A DNA stretch of 64,000 bases from Eledone cirrhosa (taxonomy: Eukaryota): positions 39,742,001 to 39,806,000 of the forward strand of contig OZ024743.1 of NCBI GenBank assembly GCA_964016885.1. Direction: 5' to 3'. This document shows, one piece after another, positions 761 through 63,424 of the stretch (position 1 is its first letter; every line of letters begins with the position of its first letter). Both the position numbers and the translations under genes were made by a program. The notes beneath the pieces were generated by a model that searched no databases, had not been told where the DNA came from, and saw only the letters and a program-made list of their open reading frames with translations.

Positions 761-1172
761 TGAAATAAAATAGATTGAGGGGACGTGCAGGATGGAATTG
801 GAAAATATGTATTTAGATAAAAATAACAGGTCCATTCATGTTGACATCTCTTGCAAAACTGTTGGTGCTGGCGTTTTGTATATGATTTAATTTCTTAGAA
901 GGGTGGATGATGGAGCGCGTCTATAATATATATATAATTAGAAAGTGAACAATACAAAATATAACAACTCCATTACCAAAGGTTTCTGGATGTTATTTCA
1001 TATTTTCTATCCATAACATCAGTGTCTGCTGACCGATCCAGACATATATTAATATCGTCTGGGATCCAGAAACATTTGGTAATGGAGTAGTTATATTTTG
1101 TGCTGTTCACTTTCTTATTAAATAGCTCTGTTCTATACATAGGGCACTTTACTTTTTCTTCGGAATTACCTA

Positions 1173-2501: not shown

Positions 2502-2808
2502 CATTTAGGTTTGTCGGTTCACCACAGGATGGTACTGGTCATTCCGTAAGGTCACCCTCGATGTAATATTAGGGAGAACACTCGACGTAATGCAACTCAC
2601 CAATCTTCGTTGGTGTTGTTGGTGTTGCGAGTACGGAGTTAATTATTATAAAATAACAGGACGCTGGACTGGTGTAATTCCTTAAAGGTTTATTATATTA
2701 TGAACATTTCAACGAGCGAGTTCAGTATGAATCCGGTCATTGAAATGTTCATAGTATAATAAAGCTTTAAGGAAATACACCAGTCCAGCCTCCTGTTATT
2801 TTGTAATA
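2502..2808. mobile_element. Short fold-back element (arms 2644-2808, centre 2726) with left tail, between TA tracts
   Basis: Imperfect ~80-bp arms. The centre is a hairpin bracketed by TTTC...GAAA-TGTTCA-TA, which matches the 3' half of a hammerhead. The tail on the minus strand reads ACTCC...GAGTGTT. Confidence 0.7.
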
Positions 2809-4498: not shown

Positions 4499-4546
4499 TG
4501 TATATATGTATACATACATATATATGTATATATATATATATATATA

Positions 4547-6075
4547 AGAGGGTGTTAAAGTTTGCTTGAAGCATTGTGAAATGTGTAAAATACGTAGTTT
4601 AGAAAGCCACAACTATGCAGAGGGAAATCTCGAGGTAGGAAGTGAATGATAGATAAGAGAAATAGGAGAACGTGAAAATAGAGAGAGATAAAGATGAAAA
4701 CAAAACAAAGGTAGAAGGGTTACCGTAGTGGAGATTTAATCCCAATATTTCGGGCTCACGCCCATCAACGGGGGAAAGTTCCAAAGGGGGGAACAGGCTA
4801 AGCGGAGAAAGTTGTGATGTCGTTAAAACAGGAATGCCGTTATGGGGAGAAAAATTATTTAAAATTTAAATGAGGGAAAGAATGCGCGTGCGCGTAATAG
4901 GCTGTGGCAAAAGCTACTGACCAAATGGGTTAAATCAAGAGGGTGCGCTTGCGTGTGAAAGCCGTAAAATATGTGTGTGTAACTATATATGTGTGTGTAA
5001 CTGTGTGTGTATATGTGTAAGTGTGTATATGTGTGAGTGTGTGTGTGTGTGAAAGATAGTGGGCTGTAGAAGCTGGAAATCATAGGGTGTGAAAGGTGGT
5101 AGGTTGTAAAACATGTGTGCGTGTATAAACATTAGTATGTGTAAGTGTATGGGTATACATGTGTGTGTAACTGTGTGTGTGTATGTGTGAGTGCGTGTGT
5201 GTGTGAAAGATAGTGGGCTGTAGAAGCTGGAAATCAAAGGGTGTGAAAGGTGGTAGGTTGTAAAAACATGTGTGCGTGTATAAATATAGATGTGTGTGTA
5301 TGCGTATGGGTATGCATATACGTGCGTGTGTGTGAAAAAAGCAGGCCGTAAGGGCTGTGAATGGTCACTATGGTTAAGTTAGCCATGTCAGCTCATTTCT
5401 CTCAGCCCGGTTGTTAAGTGGGGGTCTGAGGTTCTTAATAACAAGTGCTTCCTTTCTCCTTAAGGATCCGATGCTGCGTTCAGTCGCTAGGACTGTGACC
5501 AAGGGTCTACCCTGTGGGTTTCCGCATTTAAGGATGTGTTTACGGAAGGAAGATGCGTTGGTGTTGATATGTTCCTTGATACGAACATGTAGGGGTCGGA
5601 TGGTGCTACCTATGTAAAACTTGTTACATTTATCGCATTGAATCTTATATACGACATAGGTGCGTAGGCAAACTGCCCCCCGTATCGGGCAGTTGCTGAG
5701 GGAACACGTCCCATCTGACTCGTCGGGTTTGTTGGAGAGGCATCTTCGCAGCGAAGGTCCTGTGTGGGCCAAATGTATGTCAAGTCCCTCCGTCCGTATG
5801 GCCCTGCGGATGGCGTTCGTGGTATATTCACTCAGGTGGGAGATTTTAAAGAAGCACCTGCTTTTATTTGAGTTTCTAGTGGGTGTCTGTCTATTGGGTC
5901 TGGGGTCTCTAATTCCGTTAATCAGTCGCTTGGGATATCCATTAGACCTGAGTAGATTACGGAATTGCGTGGTATGGGTGAGACCACCCATCGGGTCGCT
6001 GCATCTGTTAGTGATACGTGTCAGTTCATTTAGGACATAGCCTCTCTTAGCGTTGTTGGGGAGGGCTGAGTTGTA
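4547..6075 (-). mobile_element. 5'-truncated Penelope-like retroelement (Neptune-like) with 3' UTR, bounded by (TA)n on both sides
   Basis: The GIY-YIG ORF is followed by ~830 bp of UTR containing a ~154-bp internal duplication (about 4970-5290). (TA)n tracts lie at 4378-4546 and from 6076. Confidence 0.75.
5374..6075 (-). CDS. Penelope-like element ORF, 5'-truncated: C-terminal RT/thumb region, Cys-rich linker and GIY-YIG endonuclease
   Basis: Open frame reads ...[12 protein letters not shown]...[13 protein letters not shown]...[29 protein letters not shown]...[16 protein letters not shown]. It contains GIY-YIG motifs VVY/YIG, the conserved R and E residues and the NGYP motif. The track's upstream extension to 6300 is only (TA)n read-through. 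Confidence 0.92.
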
Positions 6076-6188
6076 ATGCATATATACATATATACATATA
6101 TATATATACATATATATGTATACATATATACATATATGTATATATATATATATAAATATATATATATTTATATAAATATATATATATT

Positions 6189-6265: not shown

Positions 6266-6466
6266 ATAGGAACCAGTAAGACCCCGACAGCTGAGCTCAA
6301 GCCGTTTCGACGGCTAATTCTGGAATTAGTCCAGAATTAGCCGTCGAAACGGCTTGAGCTCAGCTGTCGGGGTCTTACTGGTTCCTATTACCCACTCTAC
6401 TACCTCAAGTATTGAGTACTTTGGTGCGTTATGGTCCACCTGGTTCCTTACCACATTTCCTTCGTT
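6266..6466. mobile_element. Perfect 59-bp-arm palindrome (6266-6388, 5-nt loop) plus 78-bp tail, between (TA)n tracts
   Basis: The arms are exact reverse complements. The tail reads ACTCT...GAGTACTT. Related copies are at 59702-59880, 63168-63327 and about 29452-29506. Confidence 0.85.
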
Positions 6467-6560: not shown

Positions 6561-6563
<3 letters not shown>

Positions 6564-7580
6564 GGAAAACATGAAACGAAATATCATTTCTCACTCTTAG
6601 TGCGGCTGTTACTTAAATATAAATATATATACGTACATACATATATGTATACAGACGTACAGTAGTATGCATATATATACATACATGCACACATATATAT
6701 ATGTACGTATGGATTTACCGAACATTTATTATAATGCTTGGTTTGTTTGTAAGAGTGAGAAATTAAATTTCGTTTCATTTTTTCCATTTATCGTTTTGGG
6801 TGCGCACGGCCGATTAATATGCATAAGGAAAGTATATACTTTAAGACGTTCAATCATCTGGCAGGAAGGTATACGGTGCTGACGATAGCTAATAAGCTTG
6901 AAACTAATACATCGTTCCTTTTTCAGTGTTAAACAAAAGGGCAACGATGGTTGCTAAACACTGTACGGCTTAATTCGGGATGCTTGTTTACAAACAAACC
7001 GAGCATTATAATAAATGTTCGGAAAATACATACGTACATATATATATATATATGTGTGTGCATGTATGTATATATATACATACTACTGTACGGATGTATA
7101 GATATATGTATGTACGTATATATACTTATATTTAAGTAACAGACGTACTAAGAGTGAGAAATGAAATTTTGTTTCATTTTTTCCATTTATCCTTTTCGGT
7201 GCGCCCGATTAACTCACTCGATATGAACATTAGGCCGCTCAGCCGTTAATATGCATAAGGAAAGTATATACTTTCAGACGTTCAATCATCTGGCAGGAAG
7301 GTATACGGTCCTGACTATAGCTAATAAGCTTGAAACTAGTACATCGTTCCTATGTCAGTGTTGAACAAAAGGGCAACGATGGTTGCTAAACACTGTACGG
7401 CTTAATTCGGGATGCTTGTTTACAAATAAACCGAGCATTATAATAAATATTCGCTAAATCCATACGTACATATATATATATATATATATATACATATATA
7501 TGTGCATGTAAGTATATATATACATGCTAATGTATGTCTGTATACATATATGTATGTCTGTATACATACTTATATACATT
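6561..7580 (+). mobile_element. Tandem ~430-bp hammerhead-containing repeat (retrozyme-like or PLE pLTR array) with inverted 5' segment
   Basis: An inverted segment (6561-6750) is followed by head-to-tail units. Hammerhead cores are at 6879-6909 (CTGACGA...GAAA) and about 7311-7341 (degenerate CTGACTA), 432 nt apart. Confidence 0.8.
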
Positions 7581-7708: not shown

Positions 7709-9718
7709 CAGTGATAGTGTTATATTGTTATAGAAGGTTAAATTATGCGTATATCAGTGAACATTATTTAACCCGCGACGGTTATCTTCCTCAAAGTACG
7801 CGGTATCATGAGTTTCGTAATTATGTTTTAGCACACGACACTTTCATTGCGATGATAAATATCAACTAGAATATCATATTGATATGTGCAATGTATTAAC
7901 TATTAACAAATGTATGTCATCTCCTCTGACTACGTATAGCTGCCATTGAGGAATATATCATTTACACAGTCAAATCTAGTATATATGTCAGCTAATTATT
8001 CCTAGGTGATGTTGGTATGCTATCTCTTCAGGAATAGTAAATATCGAGATTTGAAACAATGTAAATCCTAGCCTGTCATATCAATATTTTCTAATCCTAT
8101 CTAAGAGAAAATTGATTGCTTTTCATTGAAGTTTAGTGAGTTGCACTGAAGAGACATTCTCTAAGTCACGGGTTGTCACTATTGCAAATGACATTCGGCA
8201 TCCTGATACAACTGAATAGGTAGGGGGTTCGGGGTTCCACCAAGCTTAACCGATTTATTCACCGCTTAAATGATTTGACATTTTAGAAAAATCTAAGGAA
8301 ATAATATATCAATCCTGATTAAAACAGAGGGACTTCGTACATATACACGAGTTGTCTTATGTAGTTTAAGCCTGGTGGAGTGCATTCCTAACCAAGTCTT
8401 CCAGACGATTTCTTCCATAGAAGCACAGTGGACGAGAGAAAGAATCGACCCCAGTACTAGGCATATATTTTATTCATCAAGCTCAAAAATTTGAATACAT
8501 AGGGCTGTGAAAGGGAACAACCGCCAATGTATATAATCCGATGCACTAACAACTGTAAAATGGAAAATTGAAATAACATACATCCCAAGGCTGTTTGAAT
8601 TTAGAACTCGATAATGATTTATAATTGAAATAGAAGATCGATGCTACTACTTTGTTTCACTGAGAACATAATGATGAATACCGAAGGCCACCTTGGGGAA
8701 ATGTGAACTCAAAACATATACTGCTGTCTTTGAGTGCCACATATTATTTCATCCGGTGCTCTATAGATTCTGCCCCGCCACCACCTTAAGTTATGAAAGT
8801 AATTTTGAAATATAATTTATATACTTCTGTCAGTCAGAATATAATAAGGTTTTAACAGTAGTAAATATATAATTCGATTTATATGAAATGACGTGTTTAG
8901 CTTTGCAAATATACACCATTCTCTCCAAATATAGCTCTAAACATATTATATCACGATTTTATGTAATAAGAATAGGAATTAAAATTTAATCAAAATCGGA
9001 TAAATCACTGTCAAACATTGCAATGCCAGATTCCGTGCAATATTCCAACAATGCCGTTTTAAGGAGAATCTCTTTCATGAAAATATAGTTGGCTGTTGCT
9101 CATATTGTTGTTCTTATTTAGTCCCAATTTGACGCATTCTACTGACAATAGACATTACAGGTATTATCATCAAATTCGTGTAGAAGAAAGTTAATCATGT
9201 ATCCTCTTATCCTGTTTGTCCTTACTTTTGAAATTTAAATGTGATATACTTGCTATTTCTCACAGGTTTGTTGTTTGTCTGCAATGTTCTAGGAGCATAA
9301 TTTGCATTCAATGACAGGTATAAACTAACAACTATAATAACTAGCTCATTTAGTCACATAGACTTCTGATTCATTGAAGCGCACCTTATATGTTTAACTC
9401 AAAATATTCCCAAATAACACTTTGTAGTTTGATAATTATGATGTGTGGAATCAGAGGAAATTAACATCGGCTAACTTGATCAATAGAAAAATCGATGTCC
9501 ATGTCTGGAAGCAAAAACAATGATATTAAATATATAAAACAGGTGAAGTAGTATATATTGGGATATTCATCCAGTCTGACATCATCTTTGTGTATAGAAT
9601 ATTTGAATATATAAAATATCAAGTCCCGTAACATGAGTGCAAATATCCTCATATGAATATATATGTATATATATATATATATAGTATATGATCAAAAGAT
9701 GGTTAAAAGAGTTCCAAG

Positions 9719-9789
9719 TATTTTATTATGCGCATTTCAAAAACAAATATCATCATGGGATGATATCTGCGTTTTCATCAGATAAAATA
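9719..9789 (-). ncRNA. Type I hammerhead ribozyme
   Basis: Minus strand reads TATTTTAT-CTGATGA-[AAACGCAGATATCATC CCAT GATGATATTTGTTTTT]-GAAA-TGCGCA-TA-ATAAAATA. Stem I is a perfect 8 bp, stem II is long, stem III is palindromic and the cleavage triplet is AUA. Confidence 0.85.
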
Positions 9790-9905
9790 GGGATACATGA
9801 TATGAAGCTTAAAAAACACTTGTGAATAGTGAAGTTTTAAATCAACATGTTGATTTAAAACTTCACTATTCACAAGTGTTTTTTAAGCTTCATATCATGT
9901 ATCCA

Positions 9906-9976
9906 TATGTTATCTGATGAAAACGCAGATATCATCCCATGATGATATTTGTTTTTGAAATGCGCATAATAAAATA
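9906..9976 (+). ncRNA. Type I hammerhead ribozyme (mirror copy)
   Basis: CTGATGA at 9914-9920, GAAA at 9957-9960, then TGCGCA-TA, with predicted cleavage after 9968. Stem I has one mismatch. Confidence 0.8.
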
Positions 9977-10097
9977 CTTGGAACTCTTTTGACCATCTTT
10001 TGATCTTATATTATTTATACTCCAGTCCTACAAACTGTAGAGTGCTACTTATCCGATGTGTGCACTGCTTTATTGTGCTACAATAAATCTCACCTCC

Positions 10098-10175
<78 letters not shown>

Positions 10176-10178
<3 letters not shown>

Positions 10179-10570
10179 GGTGTGGAATGCTTAAAGCGTC
10201 CGTATGCGGTAGGCCGTTTAAGCACTTGATGCTCTCATAGAGCCGAGTATGATATCACAGAAATAAAGAGATCAGTGTTGCGACGAATAGAATTTATTGG
10301 ACATATTACTATCGTTTCTGTGGCGACCAGCTCGATGCACGATCGATGTGATGATCCTGACTCTGAAAATCGCAAGGTCCTCATGTACGTCTTGATTCTA
10401 CGAAGCAGATTTTCCTATGTAGGATCAAGACGTATCTGAGGACCTTGCGACACTCAGAGTCAGGTTCGATCATCACGTCGATCGTGCCTCGATCTGGTCA
10501 CCAGAGAAACGATTGTAATATGTCCAATAAATCCATTCCTCGCAACACTGATTCTCTTTTATTGTGATAT
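10176..10570. mobile_element. Fold-back hammerhead element, second family (tail 10176-10251; arms about 10252-10401 / 10419-10570)
   Basis: Imperfect inverted arms of ~150 bp lie between (TA)n tracts, with a hammerhead core in the right arm. Confidence 0.8.
10429..10524 (+). ncRNA. Type I hammerhead ribozyme with ~63-nt stem II domain
   Basis: GACGTAT-CTGAGGA(10436-10442)...GAAA(10506-10509)-CGATTG-TA-ATATGTC, followed by AATAAA. Stem I pairs GACGTAT with ATATGTC. Confidence 0.65.
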
Positions 10571-21795: not shown

Positions 21796-23269
21796 TCATT
21801 ATCTATAAAAGGCAGTTGTTGTTGTTGTGTGTGTGTGCAGGTTCCATGTTTATACATTTGCACAATTTTAAACCGATTCAACTCAAAGTCTGTAAGATTG
21901 TTGTAAATAGTCTAACTTAGTTCAACGACTATTTATTTCATTCACACTCACCCACAATTACGGAAATAATCGATAAAACTAAATACATGACGCTTTACCC
22001 CTCTAATACAATCATATTACCTCTCTCTATTCCCTTCAACTTTAAGAGAGAGAACGTTTGTTTTTTGATTGTGGAAGGGTGAAACATTTATTTACTTCAA
22101 TGTCAAAGAGAACTTATTACATTTCATACGAAACAACAATTATTCCAAGGCAACAGCTAAATTTATTCAACACCAAAAATATAGCGATAAATCTTTTTTA
22201 AAACATCTATCAACGAACGTGGAAGAAAGAAGTATCAGTTAATTTACTATAAACAATAATATCCTCTATGAGGTCACTAAACCTGCTAGAAACATCAGCT
22301 AACTCTCCCCCATATCACACCACTCCCTACTGTCTTAAATTTAGAAAACATATCCTCTCTGAGGTCAATAAACCTAGTAGAAACAGCAGCTAACTCTCCC
22401 CCATATTCAAAAGCAACAGATATATTTATTCAACAACAAAGAAAATAGCGATAAATCTGTTTTAAAACATTTATCAACGAATGTGGATGAAAGAAGTATC
22501 AGTTCATTTACTATACACGATAATTGTTTCTACTTTAGGAACAAGGCCAGGAATTACCCAGTGCATTACTGGTACTTTATTTTATCGACCTCGTAAGGAT
22601 GAAAGGCAAAGTCAACCTCGGCTGGATTTGAACTCAGATCATAAAGGGACGTAACTATGCTGGACCTCGGCGGGATTTGAACTCAGATCGTAAAGAGACG
22701 TAACTATGCTGGAAAGCATAGTTACGTCCCTTTACGATCTGAGTTCAAATCCCGCCGAGGTTGACTTTGCCTTTCATACATAATAATATCCTCTATGGGG
22801 TCACTAAACCTGCTAGAAACAGCAGCTAACTCTCCCTTATATCACATCACTCCCTACTGTCTTAAATTTAGAAAACATATCTTCTATGAGGTCACTAAAC
22901 CTGCTAGAAACAGCAGCTATATCTCCCCCATATCACATCCCCTCACTACTGTCTTAAATTTAGAAAACACACATTAGACAACCATTCAGAACAACTCCAT
23001 CGCAGCTCTGTTGTTCGGCTGGTATCGTCTACGCGCGTGTTTGCGCAAGTACTGTGAAACAATAAATTTCAACACTTCTTTGGACAGAGATAATATCCAT
23101 AGGCGAAACTACAATTGTCACTGCTGGCGCAGCTCCTGCTTCAGCAGTCCAGGTCTGCAATACATTCACCCAGTGCCTGGCAGACAAAAAAAGTGCAGCC
23201 ATAAAATGGGTGGTGCAACCTAACTTTGTGAACTTACTGACCCCGAGCAAGGCCGGGTTTTAATGCTAG
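21796..23269 (+). mobile_element. Probable non-autonomous Helitron carrying internal duplications and SINE fragments
   Basis: The 5' end is A|TC...TCTATAAAAGGCAG followed by a (GTT/GT) microsatellite. The 3' end has a hairpin CCCG-AGCAAGGC-CGGG (23242-23257) followed by CTAG|T (23266-23269). Confidence 0.55.
22521..22777. mobile_element. Rearranged SINE: minus copy, partial duplication and fold-back into a plus-strand partial copy
   Basis: The inversion is centred on ATGCT-GGAA-AGCAT (about 22706-22719). Confidence 0.85.
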
Positions 23270-24156: not shown

Positions 24157-24353
24157 GTATATATATATATATGTATATATATAACATCTCATACAAAATC
24201 ACTGAGCTGTAAATTACAGTTAAATAAGGTAAATTAAGAATACTCAACAAGCTTCCTTCTCTAGACATAGAATGTTAGTTACTAATTTCCTTTGCGGGCG
24301 TTTCCAAGATCTAAAAAACGCTTGACCATCCCACAGTTTCTGTAAGGTGTAGG

Positions 24354-40339: not shown

Positions 40340-40481
40340 TTATGTTATTTTGTACAGTAAGAGGTATATCTGAAAACAATCGTACTGAAGATTAGATCTG
40401 TCTTTGATGATTTACCAACACCGATAGTTGGTAATGGATAATCATTTACGCTTTTCATTAATAAATACAACTTATTATCAA

Positions 40482-40666
40482 ACGGTGAATTGGCAGTATC
40501 GGTAGAGGGTCGGACATGCTTTCCAGCATAGTTACGTCTCCTTACGATCTGAGTTCAAATCCTGCCGAGGTTAACTTTTCCTTTCATTCTTACGTGGTCG
40601 ATAAAATAAAGTACCAGTAACGTACTGCGTAATTGCTGGTCTTGTGCCAAATGTAGAAACAATTAT
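40482..40666 (+). mobile_element. SINE copy
   Basis: Matches 33890-34080. Confidence 0.85.
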
Positions 40667-40973
40667 CTTATATACGGGCAAGGAGAGTGTCAGCAGAAAA
40701 TAGGAAATTGTGTGTGTATATGTGCAGGTGTCGTTGAGTGTTTTTATGTATTTTCGACATCCGTCAGTTCCAATGACGAGCATTCCTTTTGTTCAAACAA
40801 CGGAACGCTTTGCACAGAAGTTAACATGCAAGTTGTTAAGCATCCCACTGACATCTAGGTATTTAACGTAGTTCGTAGGGAGTTAAAACCTGACACAATA
40901 TGTGAAAAGACTGAAAATTTGAAGAACAGGTACAACTTATTTTTGCCTGCTGAGTGAACTGTATTAAGCTAAA

Positions 40974-41362
40974 ATAATTGTTTCTAGTTTTGGCACAAGG
41001 CCAGCAATTATCCAGTGTATTACTAGTACTTTATTTTTTCGGCGCCTTAAGGATGAAAGGCAAAGTTAACCTCGGCGGATTTGAACTCAGCTTGACAAGG
41101 GCCGTAACTCTATGCGTCAAACCATGGCGTCCGACCTTCTACCGATACTGGTAATGCACCACCCTAGTGAAATAATGTTTCTGCTTTAGGCACAAGGCCA
41201 GCAATTACCCAGTGCATTACTGGTACTTTATTTTATCGACCCCGTAAGGATGAAAGGCAAAGTCAACCTCGGCTGGATATGAACTCAGATCGTAAAGGGA
41301 CGTAACTATTTCTGGAAAGCATGGCGTCCGACCCTCTACCGATACTGCCAATTCACCGCCCT
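40974..41362 (-). mobile_element. Two tandem SINE copies
   Basis: The reverse complement of the family consensus occurs twice. Confidence 0.88.
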
Positions 41363-41884
41363 TTGAAATAATGTTACTCAATCCACCACCGGTATTCGAA
41401 TTCAACCACATGGATATATACCTAACACATTAAAAAGTAAGCCACCCGCCTTTTCAGTCAGACGTTACATTCATTTGAAACAGACGTTCTTCCACATCCT
41501 CAAAGTATATCGTCCATCCTATTTCTATCACTCCACACCGCTATATTTCTACTTTACCTTTCACTTTAAATATTCCAAAAGGAACGCTCAATTAGCTACC
41601 TTTATGTTTAAATAATGTTTGGAATATTTTGGCATCAATTTATGGACATGTATTTTTAATTCTCAATAAAATTCCAATTAGTTCTCCACTTATAATGAAA
41701 CAGCAATTATTAATGAGATATTTATTATAATGTTCAGTGTTGCGTTTGTTTTCCTGCTTTCACCCTAGTTGTTTTTTCCACGTCGTTCTTGCTTTGACCT
41801 CCTTATTTCGGGTGAATCATATTCATAATTGGATCATATCTCTGCCAAAAATGCCACACTAATGCTTAATATTTTCTTAATTTT

Positions 41885-44747: not shown

Positions 44748-45156
44748 TAGATATGTATATATATACACGATGGAAGTAGCATCGACTACACTGTTACAGT
44801 ATGTATATACATTGTATTGGTATAGAATCATTATATATTATCTTTATATAACACTACGTTGCCGATAAACTTATGCATTAATCTACGTACCTACATAAAA
44901 TCTTCAAATAATGTTAAGATTGACATTTTCAGTGAAGATTAATAATTGTTTGAAATTATTGAATAATCACACAAGTCATCGTTTGTGGACGGACTTCACG
45001 GGGTTAACTCTTGCTGCAGAATCTTTTTACCTATATATATATATATATAAGATTTAATATAGAATCGGCTACCACAGGACTGGAACTGTTGCACTACTCT
45101 GAGATTCCCCATCGAGTGCTTGGCAGCACATCAAACTTTTATTTATATGATTATAG

Positions 45157-45203
<47 letters not shown>

Positions 45204-45204
<1 letters not shown>

Positions 45205-45965
45205 CTTGAAATAAAATGAAAACGAAATTTCATTTCTCACTCTTAGTACGGCACTTACTTAAATGTAAGTATGTATGTATACGTACATACATATATGTAT
45301 ACAGACGTACAGTAGCATGCACATATATATATATATATATACATATATATATACATATATACACACAGGTACACATACATATATGCACGCATCAGTTTAG
45401 CGGACGCTTATTATAACGCTGCTTTGTTCGTTTGTAAACAAACTGAACAGCCTTAATTTATGCCGTACGGTGTTAAGGCAACCACGTCACCTTTTTGTTC
45501 AACACTGACACACGAACGATGTACTAGTTTCAAGCTTGTTAGCTATCACCAGCAGCGTATACCCTTCTGCCAGATAGTTGAACGTTCGAAAGTATATACT
45601 TTCCTTATGAAAATTAACGGCTGAGCAGCCTAATTTGTATATCGAGTGAGTTAAGTCATCAGGCATACCGCAACCGATAAGTTGAAATAAAAATTAGGCT
45701 GCTCAGCCGTTAATTTTCATAAATAAAGTATATACTTTCGAACGTTCAACTATCTGGCAGAAGGGTATACAGTGCTGATGATAGCTAACAAGCTTGAAAC
45801 TAGTACATCGTTCCTGTGTCAGTGTTGAACAAAAAGGTGACGTGGCTGCCTTAACACCGTACGGCGTAAATTCAGGCTGTTCAGTTTGTTTACAAACGAA
45901 CAAAGCGGCGTAATAATAAGCGTCCGCTAAACAGATACGTGCATATATGTATGTGTACCTGTATG

Positions 45966-46040
<75 letters not shown>

Positions 46041-46424
46041 GCTACTGTACGTCTGTATACATATATGTATGTACGTATACATACATACTTACATTTAAGT
46101 AAGTGCCGTACTTATCGTGTTCGGTATGCCTGACCGACTTAACTCACTCGATATGCAAATTAGGCTGCTCAGCCGTTAATTTTCATAAGGAAAGTATATA
46201 CTTTGGAACGTTCAACTATCTGGCAGAAGGGTATACGGTGCTGATAATAGCTAGCAAGCTTGAAACTAGTACATCGTTCCTGTGTCAGTGTTGAACAAAA
46301 AGGTGACGTGGTTGCCTTAACACCGTACCGTATAAATTCAGGCTGTTCTGTTTGTTTACAAAAGAACAAAGCGACGTTATAATAAGCGTCCGCTAAACTG
46401 ATACGTGCATATATGTATGTGTAC

Positions 46425-46516
<92 letters not shown>

Positions 46517-46570
46517 GCTACTCTACGTATGTATACATATATGTATGTACGTATACATACATACTTACAT
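45204..46570. mobile_element. Same repeat family: one minus-strand monomer followed by two plus-strand monomers
   Basis: The minus unit spans 45204-45692 and its start TTGAAATAAAA recurs at its end. The inversion is at about 45693. The plus units have predicted cleavage sites at 45805 and 46271, 466 nt apart. Confidence 0.82.
45769..45811 (+). ncRNA. Minimal type I hammerhead ribozyme
   Basis: ACAGTG-CTGATGA-TAGCT AACA AGCTT-GAAA-CTAG-TA-CATCGT, with a palindromic stem III and a GUA triplet. Confidence 0.75.
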
Positions 46571-47419
46571 ATATATATATATATAAGGGTTGACAGACCC
46601 ACCATATTTATCAATGCCAGTAGCGGTTGTATCTCAGCTCACTCCATGGGCAACGTAAGGTTCATTTCCAGAGTATACACAAAGTTATTTACTTCAACAC
46701 AACACACGTAAAACGGGTGCCTAGTTGAAATGTTGCCTCGAGAACAGACTTTATGACTCTATTTTACACATACAGCTGACTGTGCTAATTTTCTATTTCT
46801 CTTCTCTTTATCTTTCCATCCATTTTTCTTCTCCATCCTCTCTTCTCTTCTCCTGTTCTGTGCGTGTGGGTTATTGTGTTTGACTGCGCGATAAACAACT
46901 TGGTTCCTTCAGCCTCTAAACTCCTCCCTATGCTATGAAGTTAGAGCCACTGTTTGAACTGTTACCTATTAAGCAGTGATCTGCCATGTAACCCTACTTT
47001 ACACCCCACAGTGCCTCCCTCATGTAGACTTATTTCTATCATCTTATCTTATTTACCTTTTATCTTTTCTTTATTTTTTCTCTTTTTTCTCCTTCATTAT
47101 CCCGCCTATATATTTGCTTCCCTTTCATTCTTCCTCTTTCCCCCTCCATTGCTGTCCCACCCCCACCCCCATATCATCATTTCCCACAAATCCGATAACA
47201 TTTCCGGGTGGAGTTGAGAAGAGGTAATTAGCCGCACCCTCAGTGCCTTCGTAGGAGTTCTACTTTCACTAATATATCCACTCAGCAACTTACCATGTAG
47301 TATCGTGTACGTCTTTAATGTGTGGTCTTCCTGGGCCCATGACCACAGGCCCTCTCTCTCTCTCACTCTCTCTCTGTCTCTCGTTCTCTCTCCATCCCTC
47401 TCTCTATCTATCTCTCTAT

Positions 47420-50164: not shown

Positions 50165-51312
50165 AATATGTAGGGTAGTACTAAGTACTAGTTGGTTACC
50201 GGTATGACAAAAGTCTCAATGCAAATTTTCAAGTGTTTTACTGAGCCGAGATTCAAAGTGTTAAAACGATCAAATTTCAGTTTAGAACATTTATTAGCTG
50301 AGAATTGTTTCTTCCAGGGGGAAATCTGGATTCATCGGAGCATAAGGAATGTCGAAAACGTGTAACTAGAATCCTAGTCATTTATAACATTTAGGGTACA
50401 TAGGTGTTATTAGTGTCAAAGGCATCATGTGGAGATTCAGGAGTTAAAAAGATGTTCCGCTTGAAATAACACAATTACAGGCAGCACTGGTTGAAAGTGT
50501 TATAGTAAGTATAAAAGTAAAAAGCACAAGCAAAAAAAGAAATCACCATGTTGTTATTGTAGGTATATTATCTTATGCATTATTTATCTGTAATTTATCT
50601 TTTCTAAGGTTTGTATTAACCGTTATTAAACTGTAATTCGCAGGAATATACATTTAACAAACAAACACCTATTGACTATAAACGACTTAAAATAACCCCA
50701 GTGAGTAACAAACAACATATGCACATAAATACGAACTACAACACAAAAACACTTAAATGAAAAGCGCATACCTAACTATATCTAGTGTTTTACATTACAC
50801 CTTGCATAACAAATAGCTACATTATCACCACATTCCTCTCTAACAAATTGCACACTATCTTAAATGTTTATAACAACTATAAGATGCTTTAACACTCCAC
50901 ACAAAATATGTTTATTTCAACTGAATTATAACTCTTCCTCATACATGCATTATTGACTGTATTAACTCCTGCATTTTACACCCATTGTCCTTGCTTATAA
51001 CTTCTTTCCCTGTGTTTTTTGCTTGTGATTTTTTTTGCTTCTGCCGTTTACTTTTACTTATACCTATTACACTTCCAACCAGTACTGCCTGTAATAGTGT
51101 TATTTCAAGCGGAACATCTTTTTAACTCATGAATCTCCACATGATGCCTTTGACACTAATAACAACTATGTACCCTAAATGTTCAAAATGACTAGGATTC
51201 TAGTTACACGTTTTCGAAATACCTTATGCTCCGATGAAACCAGACTTCCCACTGGAAGAAACAATTGTCAGTTAATAAATGGTCTAAACTAAAATTTGAT
51301 CGTTTTAACACT

Positions 51313-51314: not shown

Positions 51315-51354
<40 letters not shown>

Positions 51355-51357
<3 letters not shown>

Positions 51358-51748
51358 AAAGAATAGAGGTGTAACACACAAGTTATTATATATTGGTAAA
51401 CGGAATAGAGAATGCTGACAAATTGTTCACAGTTGAAAAATGGTTTAATTAGGAATAACAGAGTATTAGTGATTGTATGGGTTAGTATTCAGTTGTGGTT
51501 TTAAGTTTTTAAGTTTTTACCGGTTGCGCATTTCTAAATGCTTTTCAAAAATAATTTTGCGATAGAGTGTCCGTGCTGTTTGCTCTGATCTGATTAGTTT
51601 AAAGCATTTAGAAATGCGCAACCGGTAAAAGCTTAAAAACTTAAAACCACAACTGAATACTAACCCATACAATCACTAATACTCTTTTATTCCTAATTAA
51701 ACCATTTTTCAACTGTGAACAATTTGTCAGCATTTTCTATTCCGTTTA

Positions 51749-51755
<7 letters not shown>
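51355..51755. mobile_element. Fold-back copy of the 1209-2491 family
   Basis: It has the same tail (AAAGAATAGAGGTGTAACACAC) and arm (TATTGGTAAACGGAA...). The inverted arm at 51601-51755 ends in (TA)n. Confidence 0.8.
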
Positions 51756-51791
<36 letters not shown>

Positions 51792-51799
<8 letters not shown>

Positions 51800-52221
51800 C
51801 GACATTAAATAAATGGAAACTATATTTTTAAAACCATATTTATTCTATTATATATATTTCAAGGGTGCCACAACTTTGGTGCGGCCTCATCAGATAATAT
51901 ACAAAGTTTGTTTTATAAATATTGACATAACCAGGAAGAAGAACTTAACGGTACAGTTTTTCCTGGATAGAAACGTTAAGTTCTTCTTCCAGGTTATGCC
52001 AATATTTGTAAAACAAACTTTGTATTGTATCTGATGAGAGCGCACAAATGTTTTGGTACCCTTGAATTATATATAATAGAATAAATCTGGTTTTAAAAAT
52101 ATAGTTTCCATTTATTTAATATCATTGAATATTATACTCCAGACAAATTGTTGAGTGCTTTGAATCAGTTATAAACATTTATATTTGTTGAATTACCAAC
52201 GAATTGAAATATCCCTTTTGG

Positions 52222-52283: not shown

Positions 52284-52640
52284 GCAGACACACACCTATA
52301 TATAAACAGTCTTGACCGGCATGGGCTGGAGTTTGGATTATGTCGATCGATTGGTTATTGGTTATTGATTAGGCGATACCCGCTGATGAAGCCGCATAAG
52401 CCGAGTGTGTATTGTTGCATAATATATGCAGAGTGATGGTGCAGTGCACATTACTGCTGCATTAAATGCGGCCGAAACGCCAGTCCCGGAACTATTATAG
52501 GCACCCGTTTTACATGTGCTGTATTGAAGCGAATAACTATGTGTATACTCTGGCAATGTATCTTACATTGCCAATGGAGTACGCTGAGATACAACCGGCC
52601 CTGTCATTAATAAATATGGTCTGTCCGTCAACTCCTTCTT

Positions 52641-54419: not shown

Positions 54420-57632
<3,213 letters not shown>

Positions 57633-57855
57633 AATTAGCGAGAATCGTATTTCGGCTATTGGAAATTAGCGAAAATTAACTTCCGAGATGTGTGGCAAGC
57701 GCTCAATATATTCTAAGGAACCAGAGCTACAACATACGTTAAAAGGCCAAACACACTGGGACGAGGGTTAAACCATTATCCGCACAGCCATAGTAACGAC
57801 CAAGTAATTCGGGTCAAACGTAATAAAAAGAAATATGATTGAAAAATGTGATTGA

Positions 57856-60137: not shown

Positions 60138-60141
<4 letters not shown>

Positions 60142-60490
60142 GGGAAAAATGTAACGAAATTTCATTTCCCACTTTTAGTACGGCTGTTACTTAAATATAA
60201 GTATGTACACGTACATAGATATACAGACGTACAGTAGTATGTATATATATATATACATACATGCACACATATATATATGTACGTATGGATTCACCGAACA
60301 TTTATTATAACGTTCGGTGTGTTTGTAAACAAACATCCCGTATAAAGCCGTAGTGTCCAGCAACCATCGATGGTCGTTTGTTCAACACTGACAAAGGATC
60401 GCTGTACTAGTTTCAAGCTTATTAGCTATCGTCAGCAACGTATACCTTCCGGCCAGATTGTTGAACGTATATACTTACCTTATGCATACG
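60138..60490 (-). mobile_element. Single partial copy of the same repeat family
   Basis: It matches 6561-6750 and the reverse complement of 6820-7020, and is flanked by TA tracts. Confidence 0.75.
60400..60440 (-). ncRNA. Minimal type I hammerhead ribozyme
   Basis: Minus strand reads CGTTG-CTGACGA-TAGCT AATA AGCTT-GAAA-CTAG-TA-CAGCG. Stem I is fully paired, including one G-U. Confidence 0.78.
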
Positions 60491-60526
60491 TGTACATACT
60501 TATATTTATATAAATATACTAATATA

Positions 60527-61568: not shown

Positions 61569-62263
61569 GATATTAACAAATGGAAACTATATTTATAAAA
61601 CCATATTTATTTTATTATACACATTTCAAGGATACCACGTTAAATTATGGTATGCTTTCATCAGACAAAATACAATATATATCAGTTTTATAAATAAATA
61701 TTGACATACCCTTAAAAAATGCAACCATTACAGTTGGAAGCTCCAGGATAGTGGAGTTGTTTAGTTATATTAGTATTGGATAAGTCGTTGGGTTACAGAG
61801 AAGGAAAAAGTCGGAGAGGGAGAAAAAGATAGAAAGAAGGAAAAAAGAAAAAAGAGAGACACGTTAGAGAGATACCAAAATAACAGATAGAGAGAAAAAA
61901 CAGAGAGAAAAAAACATCTCCCTCTCCGTCTTTTTCCTTCTCTGTAACCCAACGACTTATCCAATACTAATATAACTAAACAACTCCACTATCCTGGAGC
62001 TTCCAACTGTAATGGTTGCATTTTTTAAGGGTATGTCAATATTTATTTATAAAACTGATATATATTGTATTTTGTCTGATGAAAGCATACCATAATTTAA
62101 CGTGTTATCCTTGAAATATGTATAATGAAATAAATATGGTTTTATAAATATAGTTTCCATTTGTTAATATCGTATGTTTACTCCAAATACTTGTTGAGTG
62201 CTTTATATCAGATATAAAAATATTTGCTTATTGTATCCCAACAATTTAAATAGAACTTTTGCA
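61565..62263. mobile_element. Fold-back hammerhead element related to 51792 (arms about 61565-61823 / 61917-62175, purine-rich spacer, tail to about 62263)
   Basis: The ~260-bp arms are nearly identical. Both carry TATTTTGT-CTGATGA-AAGCATACCA...TATCCTT-GAAA...TA-AT(A/G)AAATA (plus-strand core 62076-62124, minus-strand span about 61608-61672). The tail reads ACTCCAAATACTTGTTGAGTGCTT. Confidence 0.85.
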
Positions 62264-62270
62264 TATATAT

Positions 62271-62502
62271 ATATTGTTATACTCTGGGAGGGTCATGTTG
62301 CCAATAAGAAAGACATGCACTAGCTGCTTTCACTCCAATTTATATTAAATTAAATTTATAAATTTTATTTATAACAAATTGGAGTGAAGCACTGGTGCGT
62401 GTGTTTCTTATTGGCAACATGACCCTCCCAAAGTATAACAATATCGGTTTCAACACACGTTTTCAGATAAAGAATCTTGCTAAACAAATTGAGAAACAGA
62501 AT
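62271..62502. mobile_element. Fold-back palindrome (62271-62444) of the Penelope 3' terminus plus tail
   Basis: The right arm CTGGTGCGTGTGTTT...TTGGCAACATGACCCTCCCAAAGTATAACAATA matches 57450-57502. A further related end lies at about 2820-2850 on the minus strand. Confidence 0.85.
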
Positions 62503-62521
62503 ATATATATATATATATATA

Positions 62522-62617
62522 TAAACATTTACATATACCCCAATTAAACAAAATCATAGAAATATATGCGTTTATATCTCTGACTTTGTTCAATTGGGGC
62601 ATATGTAAATATTTATA
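62522..62617. repeat. Short fold-back (~45-bp arms) starting at a TA tract
   Basis: TAAACATTTACATATACCCCAATTAAACAAA pairs with TTTGTTCAATTGGGGCATATGTAAATATTTA. It is followed by ATCTC...GAGATGC. Confidence 0.65.
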
Positions 62618-63167
62618 TTTAATAATCTCCCATAGGTTGAGATGCAATTTGTGCAATATTGGTCTGCGCTTTCTCGCAACCAACCCACTCGCCGTAAGCA
62701 ACCAATCAAATGCTTTCTGACTTGTCCACTGCCACGTCACAGTTCTCAGCCATATTGAATTCGTGTTTGGCGGGGGCTACTTCAGAAAATAATCTGTCCT
62801 AGCGAGTTTGTCCCCTGACGAGTTCGAAACTCGAAATTTATCCTTAATAGGTTATCTCAAAATGAGAATGAATCCCAGGGGTAGGGATGTATTCCTGGTA
62901 TGTATATAAACATTTCTAACTTTAATGTTTTACCTAATTCCAGGTGCTGTTGAAATGTTAGGTAAATATTCTGTAGCGGTTGGCGGCGAATAGGCTGCTA
63001 TGGTTTATTTATTTACAGTTTCTTCATATGTGTCTTTTAATCTTATAGCCTGGTCTAATTGATTTTTTATGTAGTTAATTATGCTAATTGGGAGAGGAAA
63101 TGATGTATATATATATTATCAAATGGTTCTATGGACATACTTTACTTTATAGTATATATATATATAA

Positions 63168-63424
<257 letters not shown>

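Follow-up and report, generated by a model that had tools for sequence, protein, structure and literature searches.

The window analysed here is a 64,000-nucleotide stretch of the Eledone cirrhosa genome (assembly GCA_964016885.1, contig OZ024743.1, positions 39,742,001 to 39,806,000, forward strand). It comes from an AT-rich, 3-Gb animal genome and is crowded with elements built on one plan, in which an inverted arm, followed by a sense arm and then by an unpaired tail, stands between two (TA)n tracts. A first-pass annotation of this DNA had pointed to a small ACTC..GAGT hairpin in the unpaired tail of several elements, just beyond the point where the inverted arm stops. Which elements carry this hairpin, and what does it have to do with the end of the arm?

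A (TA)n tract is the insertion site of the element at 9684-10100, which corresponds to the 3' end, with its ribozyme, of a Penelope-like retrotransposon (PLE) of the Hydra clade. Its two arms pair with 5 mismatches over 164 nt. At locus L155, an intact 800-aa ORF is preceded by a pLTR and tail to which region 9848-10100 has 89% identity over 253 nt. The predicted hammerhead ribozyme of the sense arm comprises CTGATGA at 9914, a long stem II, GAAA at 9957 and a palindromic stem III; its minus-strand mirror is inside the inverted arm, at 9720-9788. The motif is absent from the 150 Rfam matches listed. Because the core motifs at 9914 and 9957 are on the sense arm, the RNA strand reads arm, then tail; the strand of the hairpin is fixed by the orientation of both the ORF and the ribozyme. 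The tail is bounded by two sites. At site 1, the junction falls either 7 nt before the hairpin, following 10011, or 4 nt before it, following 10014. The hairpin itself consists of ACTC, a 4-bp upper stem, a 7-nt loop, a TA bulge and GAGT, then GCT. The copy at 10012-10100 carries no second hairpin, which is found 4-6 nt past the tail end in read-through copies of the same family, F1.

Table 1. Coordinates of the F1 element and of the hairpins located in the window.
Feature	Position	Strand	Remark
(TA)n target tract, left	9657..9683	.	
Inverted arm	9684..9847	-	5'-truncated F1 pLTR copy ending at site 1
Sense arm	9848..10011	+	pLTR of Hydra-type PLE family F1
Type I hammerhead ribozyme motif (predicted)	9907..9975	+	core motifs by pattern and eye
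Site 1	10006..10018	+	TAT microhomology to (TA)n target
Hairpin 1 of F1	10019..10046	+	MFE structure; covariation across families
89-nt tail between site 1 and site 2	10012..10100	+	
(TA)n target tract, right	10101..10175	.	
Hairpin 1, family F2	52136..52156	+	Hydra ORF; hairpin 2 seen in L165-L174
Hairpin 1, F2 variant	62180..62199	+	
Hairpin 1, family F3	6394..6417	+	Hydra ORF; hairpin 2 in genome matches
Hairpin 1, family F6	2580..2639	-	long upper stem
Hairpin 1, family F14	10224..10248	-	decayed copy (GAGT -> AAGT); Hydra ORF
Hairpin 1, family F15	52547..52580	+	sense-only copy; second F15 copy at 46641-46674 (-)
Hairpin 1, family F16	45096..45117	+	lone rearranged copy without inverted arm
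Hairpin 2, family F10	62626..62642	+	676-nt family, likely non-autonomous
Additional hairpin 1, F3 relative	63228..63251	-	not cited in the first-pass annotation
Additional hairpin 1, family F5	1125..1145	+	GCTC type, behind an inverted arm; not cited in the first-pass annotation

All nine motifs cited in the first-pass annotation are present at their places. Six of them (10019, 52136, 62180, 6394 and, on the minus strand, 2639 and 10248) do lie in the tail, just past an inverted arm. This description does not fit 45096 and 52547, both devoid of an inverted arm in the window, which are the sense-only tail ends of families seen elsewhere. It does not fit 62626 either: a short inverted arm (about 62523-62611) precedes and stops at site 2 of F10, but the hairpin is of a second type and not the tail hairpin. 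The host families had also been called unrelated. As DNA this is correct, since among the cited sites only 52136 and 62180 are alike and six leaders match over at most 15 nt; it is wrong for those two sites, which form one family group, and for the proteins of the families with an ORF, which show 33-60% identity to F1. DNA similarity is also found in two pairs involving uncited sites. What the annotation had missed is the bulge with its variable upper stem, the membership in Hydra-clade PLEs and the second copy past the tail end. Three more likely copies of hairpin 1, also uncited, are found on the minus strand at 57701-57727, 24242-24273 and 50210-50250, 90-120 nt before a (TA)n tract.

The position of the motif was examined outside the window in 80 stretches of 10 kb fetched at fixed places (800 kb; six of them adjoin the window). 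Foldbacks were called without use of the motif, giving 136 ends in 864 kb. The test set comprised 38 tails of 25-170 nt from 20 families, all outside the window and with low-complexity tails left out. In 8 of the 38 tails (3 of the 20 families), the pattern ACTC-N4-30-GAGT of the first-pass annotation has its start no more than 16 nt from the arm end, compared with a mean of 0.16 and a maximum of 2 matching tails over 1000 dinucleotide shuffles. The offset from the arm end is 6-8 nt in each of the eight tails, and none of 342 arm-interior windows is matched. The motif thus exceeds chance and is positional. The remaining tails correspond to variants (GCTC/GAGC, GTTC/GAAC, long upper stems), to mis-set arm ends or to other PLE families; the initial segmentation by (TA)n split elements having internal TA runs, and mis-set arm ends were scored as misses. 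A refined structural descriptor matched 22 of the 38 tails (11 of the 20 families) but was discarded as a test because it had been written after inspecting these very tails. It is also loose, with matches in 28 of the 342 arm windows and 5 tail matches in two motif-free families, and was kept for descriptive use only.

Across families, the consensus is NCTC, a variable upper stem-loop (8 to >100 nt), a 2-nt bulge on the 3' side, GAGN and often RCT. The bulge is mostly TT, TC or TA, the pairing-partner rule itself imposing a pyrimidine in it. Covariation was analysed with 27 hand-picked hairpins, one per family and type, the 3' partner of which was picked by a sequence rule only. The five pairs outside this selection rule are formed in 107 cells versus a permuted mean of 65 and a maximum of 86, a figure that is not a clean probability since the 27 hairpins were chosen by hand and share ancestry, one row with a wrong partner being kept. 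The outer pair and the four upper pairs are formed in 24, 23, 23, 22 and 15 of the 27 hairpins (permuted means 15.9, 16.4, 12.8, 9.7 and 10.3). The outer pair alternates between A-T (11) and G-C (10). With the 2-nt register, 68 of 81 cells are paired, as compared to 20-29 with other registers. This covariation shows the structure to be a bulged hairpin. Folding energy does not single out the hairpins of the window: seven of nine are no more stable than shuffled sequences (z +0.4 to -0.7), so that most single hairpins would need a protein to hold them. Irregular examples include hairpin 2 of F15, with a poor upper stem, and F146, of which the first pair is mismatched. In one F7 leader (L185), hairpin 2 holds a 108-nt TA-rich insert, yet the conserved bulge and stem close. 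A miRNA identity was considered and rejected; among the 150 Rfam matches listed, those with miRNA models involve only microsatellites or foldbacks and fall below thresholds.

A second copy of the hairpin stands a few nt past the tail end in all ten families with read-through (F1, F2, F146, F7, F9, F10, F3, F14, F15 and F6; for F9 at one locus). After its observation in other families, it was predicted beforehand for F3, F14, F15 and F6. The F3 pattern gave 293 genome matches (control 0), and the 100 matches listed share one continuation, then a Hydra ORF. In F14, a continuation with hairpin 2 is common to 4 of 12 places, and most of the F15 matches listed share one as well. Since the motif was part of these three patterns, they document a fixed continuation bearing it and not the proportion of copies that have it. 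The F6 pattern specified the 5' half alone; it gave 276 matches (control 0), and 9 of 10 fetched loci also contain the 3' half. The hairpin-to-hairpin spacing, 72-138 nt, tracks the length of the tail, about 65-145 nt in these families. Linking families to ORFs by proximity was abandoned because nested insertions created false links, and read-through was used instead.

Both copies belong to the 5' leader, hairpin 2 being 36-147 nt before the ATG. A promoter, a transcription-start signal or a translation signal of the leader, with incidental closeness to the ends, could explain such a location. We consider this explanation highly improbable: the distance to the ATG varies widely while that to the insertion ends stays at 3-7 nt, non-coding families retain both hairpins, and base pairing is conserved beyond sequence alone.

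The insertion ends are closely tied to the hairpins. F1 queries were used to fetch loci in which 70 F1 ends were mapped; all of these ends group into two clusters, each preceding one of the hairpins and located at a TA/TAT microhomology. At site 1 (n=36), 22 ends lie 4 nt and 9 lie 7 nt before hairpin 1; at site 2, most are 6 or 4 nt before hairpin 2. The same tendency is seen in F2, where site 2 is 4 nt before the hairpin in 10 of 11 cases and site 1 is more spread, and in F7, where site 1 is 4 nt before the hairpin in 5 of 6. Contigs from sequencing runs at the F1 junction display TA-ended loose ends at the two sites and nothing further. Hairpin families have 30 divergent end pairs in the unbiased 864 kb, and 29 of these associate one site 1 end with one site 2 end. 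The lone exception involves two copies separated by 6 kb; a further pairing is doubtful, and for F2 the reference is over-long. The hairpin pair thus appears to fix both tail ends; the proposal of the first-pass annotation that the motif fixes where the inverted arm ends has to be widened accordingly, its causal side being deduced from position. PLE families without the motif also have asymmetric ends, in 9 of 9 pairs. Asymmetry is therefore a general PLE trait and the hairpin is not the sole tail maker.

A fixed spacing to both ends would also be expected of an RNA-processing signal, with the transcript cut few nt before each hairpin and LINE-like priming at the new 3' ends. In line with this idea, RNA-seq read ends coincide with the start sites in the green anole element PAc, a Poseidon PLE (PMC11167929). 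However, one cut RNA has one 3' end, so that two independently cut RNAs would give about half symmetric pairs, and 29 of 30 are asymmetric. In addition, PAc starts internally on uncut RNA in vitro (PMC11167929). RNA processing is thus an improbable explanation.

Several features identify the hosts as EN+ PLEs. A single ORF encodes the RT and a GIY-YIG-type endonuclease (EN); pLTRs arise from partial tandems, and an inverted 5'-truncated copy and a one-sided tail are present. Full-length F1 copies contain an intact 800-aa ORF starting 72 nt after hairpin 2, longer F1 copies hold ORF pieces, and the intact ORFs are near-identical among copies. In the available part of Craig 2021 (PMC8557442), the Hydra clade is characterised by RWK, DKT, CxCx5C, CxxC and CxH motifs, no CCHH, (TA)n targets and a size generally <3 kb. 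In the four aligned ORF families here, the RW-x motif reads RWT, RWR, RWK and RWR, and DKG is replaced by DKT in 4/4. F1 has the CxCx5C linker, also found in F146, as well as CxxC and CxH near the end of the EN, and CCHH is absent from it. The RW-K/T/R motif, the hammerhead in the pLTR (predicted here) and the inverted 5'-truncated copy with its one-sided tail all agree with the published part of the clade description, as does insertion into (TA)n. Two points differ. Tails are about 65-145 nt here and not 30-40 as in that part of PMC8557442, and tandem periods are about 3.5 kb (F3) and 3.9 kb (F1), units exceeding 3 kb because of a long 3' UTR.

Six hairpin families are tied to Hydra ORFs (F1, F2, F3, F7, F14 and F146). 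The four aligned ORF families show 44-47% identity to F1, and a protein search gave 15 relatives. By their protein sequences, families unrelated as DNA belong to one clade, similarity to the published Hydra ORFs being judged by eye. In F6, F10 and F15, no Hydra ORF was found after hairpin 2, and these three families are likely non-autonomous. F5, F9 and F16 were not linked to an ORF in the loci examined. One F10 locus (L060, 6480-8560) is a tandem of a 676-nt ORF-less unit with a hammerhead core and both hairpins, resembling a retrozyme-like passenger. It recalls the non-LTR retrozymes or non-autonomous PLE derivatives of a recent preprint (bioRxiv 10.64898/2026.07.22.740005), in the accessible text of which a term search retrieved no mention of hairpin, tail, initiation or bulge. 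Compared with that text, what is identified here in addition is a cis-signal shared with the helper clade.

The hairpin is not confined to this genome. Among the six Hydra consensi of PMC8557442 (File S7, inspected by eye in the part available), three have the canonical hairpin, two have variants and one has none. The canonical form is at the 3' end in Hydra-2_Amil and Hydra-2_Ajap and occurs twice before the ATG in Hydra-1_Ajap; these consensi derive from coral and sea cucumber. Hydra-1_Crog and Hydra-1_Obim carry the variants, and the sixth consensus stops soon after the ribozyme. In metagenome loci, the hairpin is found in 3 of 7: L235 with both copies, L241 with one in a (TA)n-ended tail and L236 with one having an imperfect upper stem. 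The other four lack a canonical copy, L237 despite an intact junction, and L238-L240 being fragments. Before the ATG of L236 (950-1133) and L237 (1270-1300), TT-GTGY-RCT/GCC replaces TT-GAGC-ACT, as in Hydra-1_Crog; this form is possibly a sub-lineage variant. With its fixed offset, its compensatory pairing and its conservation in other phyla, the motif qualifies as the conserved cis-element tied to the arm end suggested by the first-pass annotation. One might instead see in it a neutral remnant of shared descent, or a pattern arising by chance in AT-rich repeats, since ORF-bearing families share ancestry and loose descriptors match unrelated DNA (many times in L239-L240). Such an origin is most improbable in view of flanks without DNA similarity next to two covarying copies per element, and of the recurrence of the hairpin in other phyla.

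What then is recognised, and by which partner? Our preferred reading, to which we give a probability of roughly 0.7, is that the twin bulged hairpin near the pLTR-ORF junction of Hydra-clade PLEs is an RNA docking site that positions the starts of reverse transcription. Among the three roles put forward in the first-pass annotation, recognition by the RT agrees best with the data, recognition by an endonuclease is a rival and a transcription-start signal fits poorly. One of the closest known systems is PAc (PMC11167929), in which both target strands are cut and extended, and the tail is, in vitro, the stretch between two internal RT starts. By analogy, sites 1 and 2 can be read as RT starts, each with its own hairpin downstream. 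PAc resembles the present elements in having an RNA stem-loop at the start region and a hammerhead upstream, but it starts inside an AC-rich stem-loop within the ORF, not 5' of a stem-loop, and the CTC...GAG hairpin is absent from the PAc RNA letters of Fig S1 in that paper. Here, each start has its own copy of the motif, downstream of the start and in the non-coding leader.

In this proposal, the hairpin would dock the protein on the RNA, and the RT would start at a UA/AUA stretch 3-7 nt on the 5' side of the hairpin. The GIY-YIG domain would nick both strands of (TA)n, and each 3'-OH would pair with the UA stretch before one hairpin. The two cDNAs would then extend in the direction leading away from the hairpins, terminate after variable lengths and be joined head to head, producing the inverted arms. 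The site 2 cDNA would copy the tail with hairpin 1, and the site 1 cDNA neither hairpin; the length of the tail would thus equal the hairpin-to-hairpin distance. Two starts would also account for hairpin 1 being only in the tail, for hairpin 2 never being at a 3' end and for a family-specific tail length. As every 3' end stops short of hairpin 2, the template should have a 5' leader downstream of a pLTR and would therefore be an RNA in tandem or circular form. Families that are non-coding but keep both hairpins would be mobilised in trans. Docking and the setting of the starts are here predicted functions of the hairpin, drawn from its position and from the PAc analogy. A more specific version, programmed twin priming, in which one RNP with two RT active sites holds the two hairpins of a tandem or circular RNA and primes both nicked (TA)n strands, has in our view about even odds. 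Twin priming is known from L1, where two primers on one RNA give an inversion, the first start being at the RNA 3' end and the second opportunistic. Unlike in L1, both starts of Hydra PLEs would be internal, each marked by a dedicated hairpin. Recruitment of an RT by a structured RNA is also known, from recognition of the 3'-UTR in R2.

The main rival places recognition on DNA. The hairpin, extruded or single-stranded, would be a GIY-YIG site used to resolve a long cDNA/donor intermediate, with cuts few nt before each hairpin. EN-mediated resolution is the explanation given for the PLE tail in Craig 2021 (PMC8557442), and the D. virilis tail is reported to be needed for EN recognition of plasmids (PMC11167929). 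The covariation data are uninformative here, as the counts of G-U and A-C cells (6 versus 4) do not separate RNA from single-stranded DNA. Nevertheless, the PAc tail ends match RT start sites on RNA (PMC11167929), the TA microhomology between the present ends and the target is what pairing of primer and template predicts, and a cDNA begun at these ends would lack hairpin 2. We therefore regard DNA recognition as unlikely, but as the rival to be taken most seriously, and retain RNA docking.

The clade, the tail and internal initiation were already known, and the twin hairpins are new relative to the literature searched. They are not described in the available part of PMC8557442, though three of its six consensi carry them, nor in the other freely accessible texts searched, which include passages of PMC4209133. 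The PLE tail and inverted ends were so far without a cis-acting explanation; the one in vitro study, as far as its available part goes, tied the tail to two RT starts and not to a conserved signal (PMC11167929). A twice-used hairpin with fixed spacing offers a rule by which ends can be predicted and non-autonomous passengers recognised in animal genomes. If programmed twin priming is true, the insertion as inverted arm plus tail is dictated by two uses of an RNA motif of 25 nt, and the same motif gives non-coding passengers their licence to move. No RNA recognition code would have been defined earlier for a retrotransposon RT related to telomerase. The hairpin-protein interface could be compared with telomerase, the sister RT group, and the intact near-identical F1 ORFs are a source of protein for an assay.

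Other repeats of the window have different designs. The Neptune/Poseidon-type tail (30-45 nt, overlapping the ORF start, without the motif) is not that of the hairpin families. Region 4546-6079 (minus strand) is the 3' part of a Neptune-like PLE with a GIY-YIG domain (Pfam PF01541, E 2e-5). This family is very abundant and young, with intact ORFs and inverted pairs; its 45-nt tail overlaps the ORF start, without the hairpin motif at the ends (5374-6079), and a similar CATT-x-CAC word comes after each of the two end sites. At 55162-57500 and 62275-62500 there is a different RT of PLE type, in which a long insert separates motifs A and B; its family has a 60-nt tail without canonical hairpin. 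Foldbacks at 1203-2495 and 51354-51758 have a 39-40 nt tail, some copies showing ACTC after the arm end without a GAGT partner. A further foldback family (6561-7560, 45200-46560 and 60140-60500) has a compact hammerhead core (6879, 45775 and 60435) and a TA-rich tail. Finally, a short interspersed repeat, which we take to be SINE-like, recurs at 22599-22777 and 40472-41375, also in inverted and tandem arrangements.
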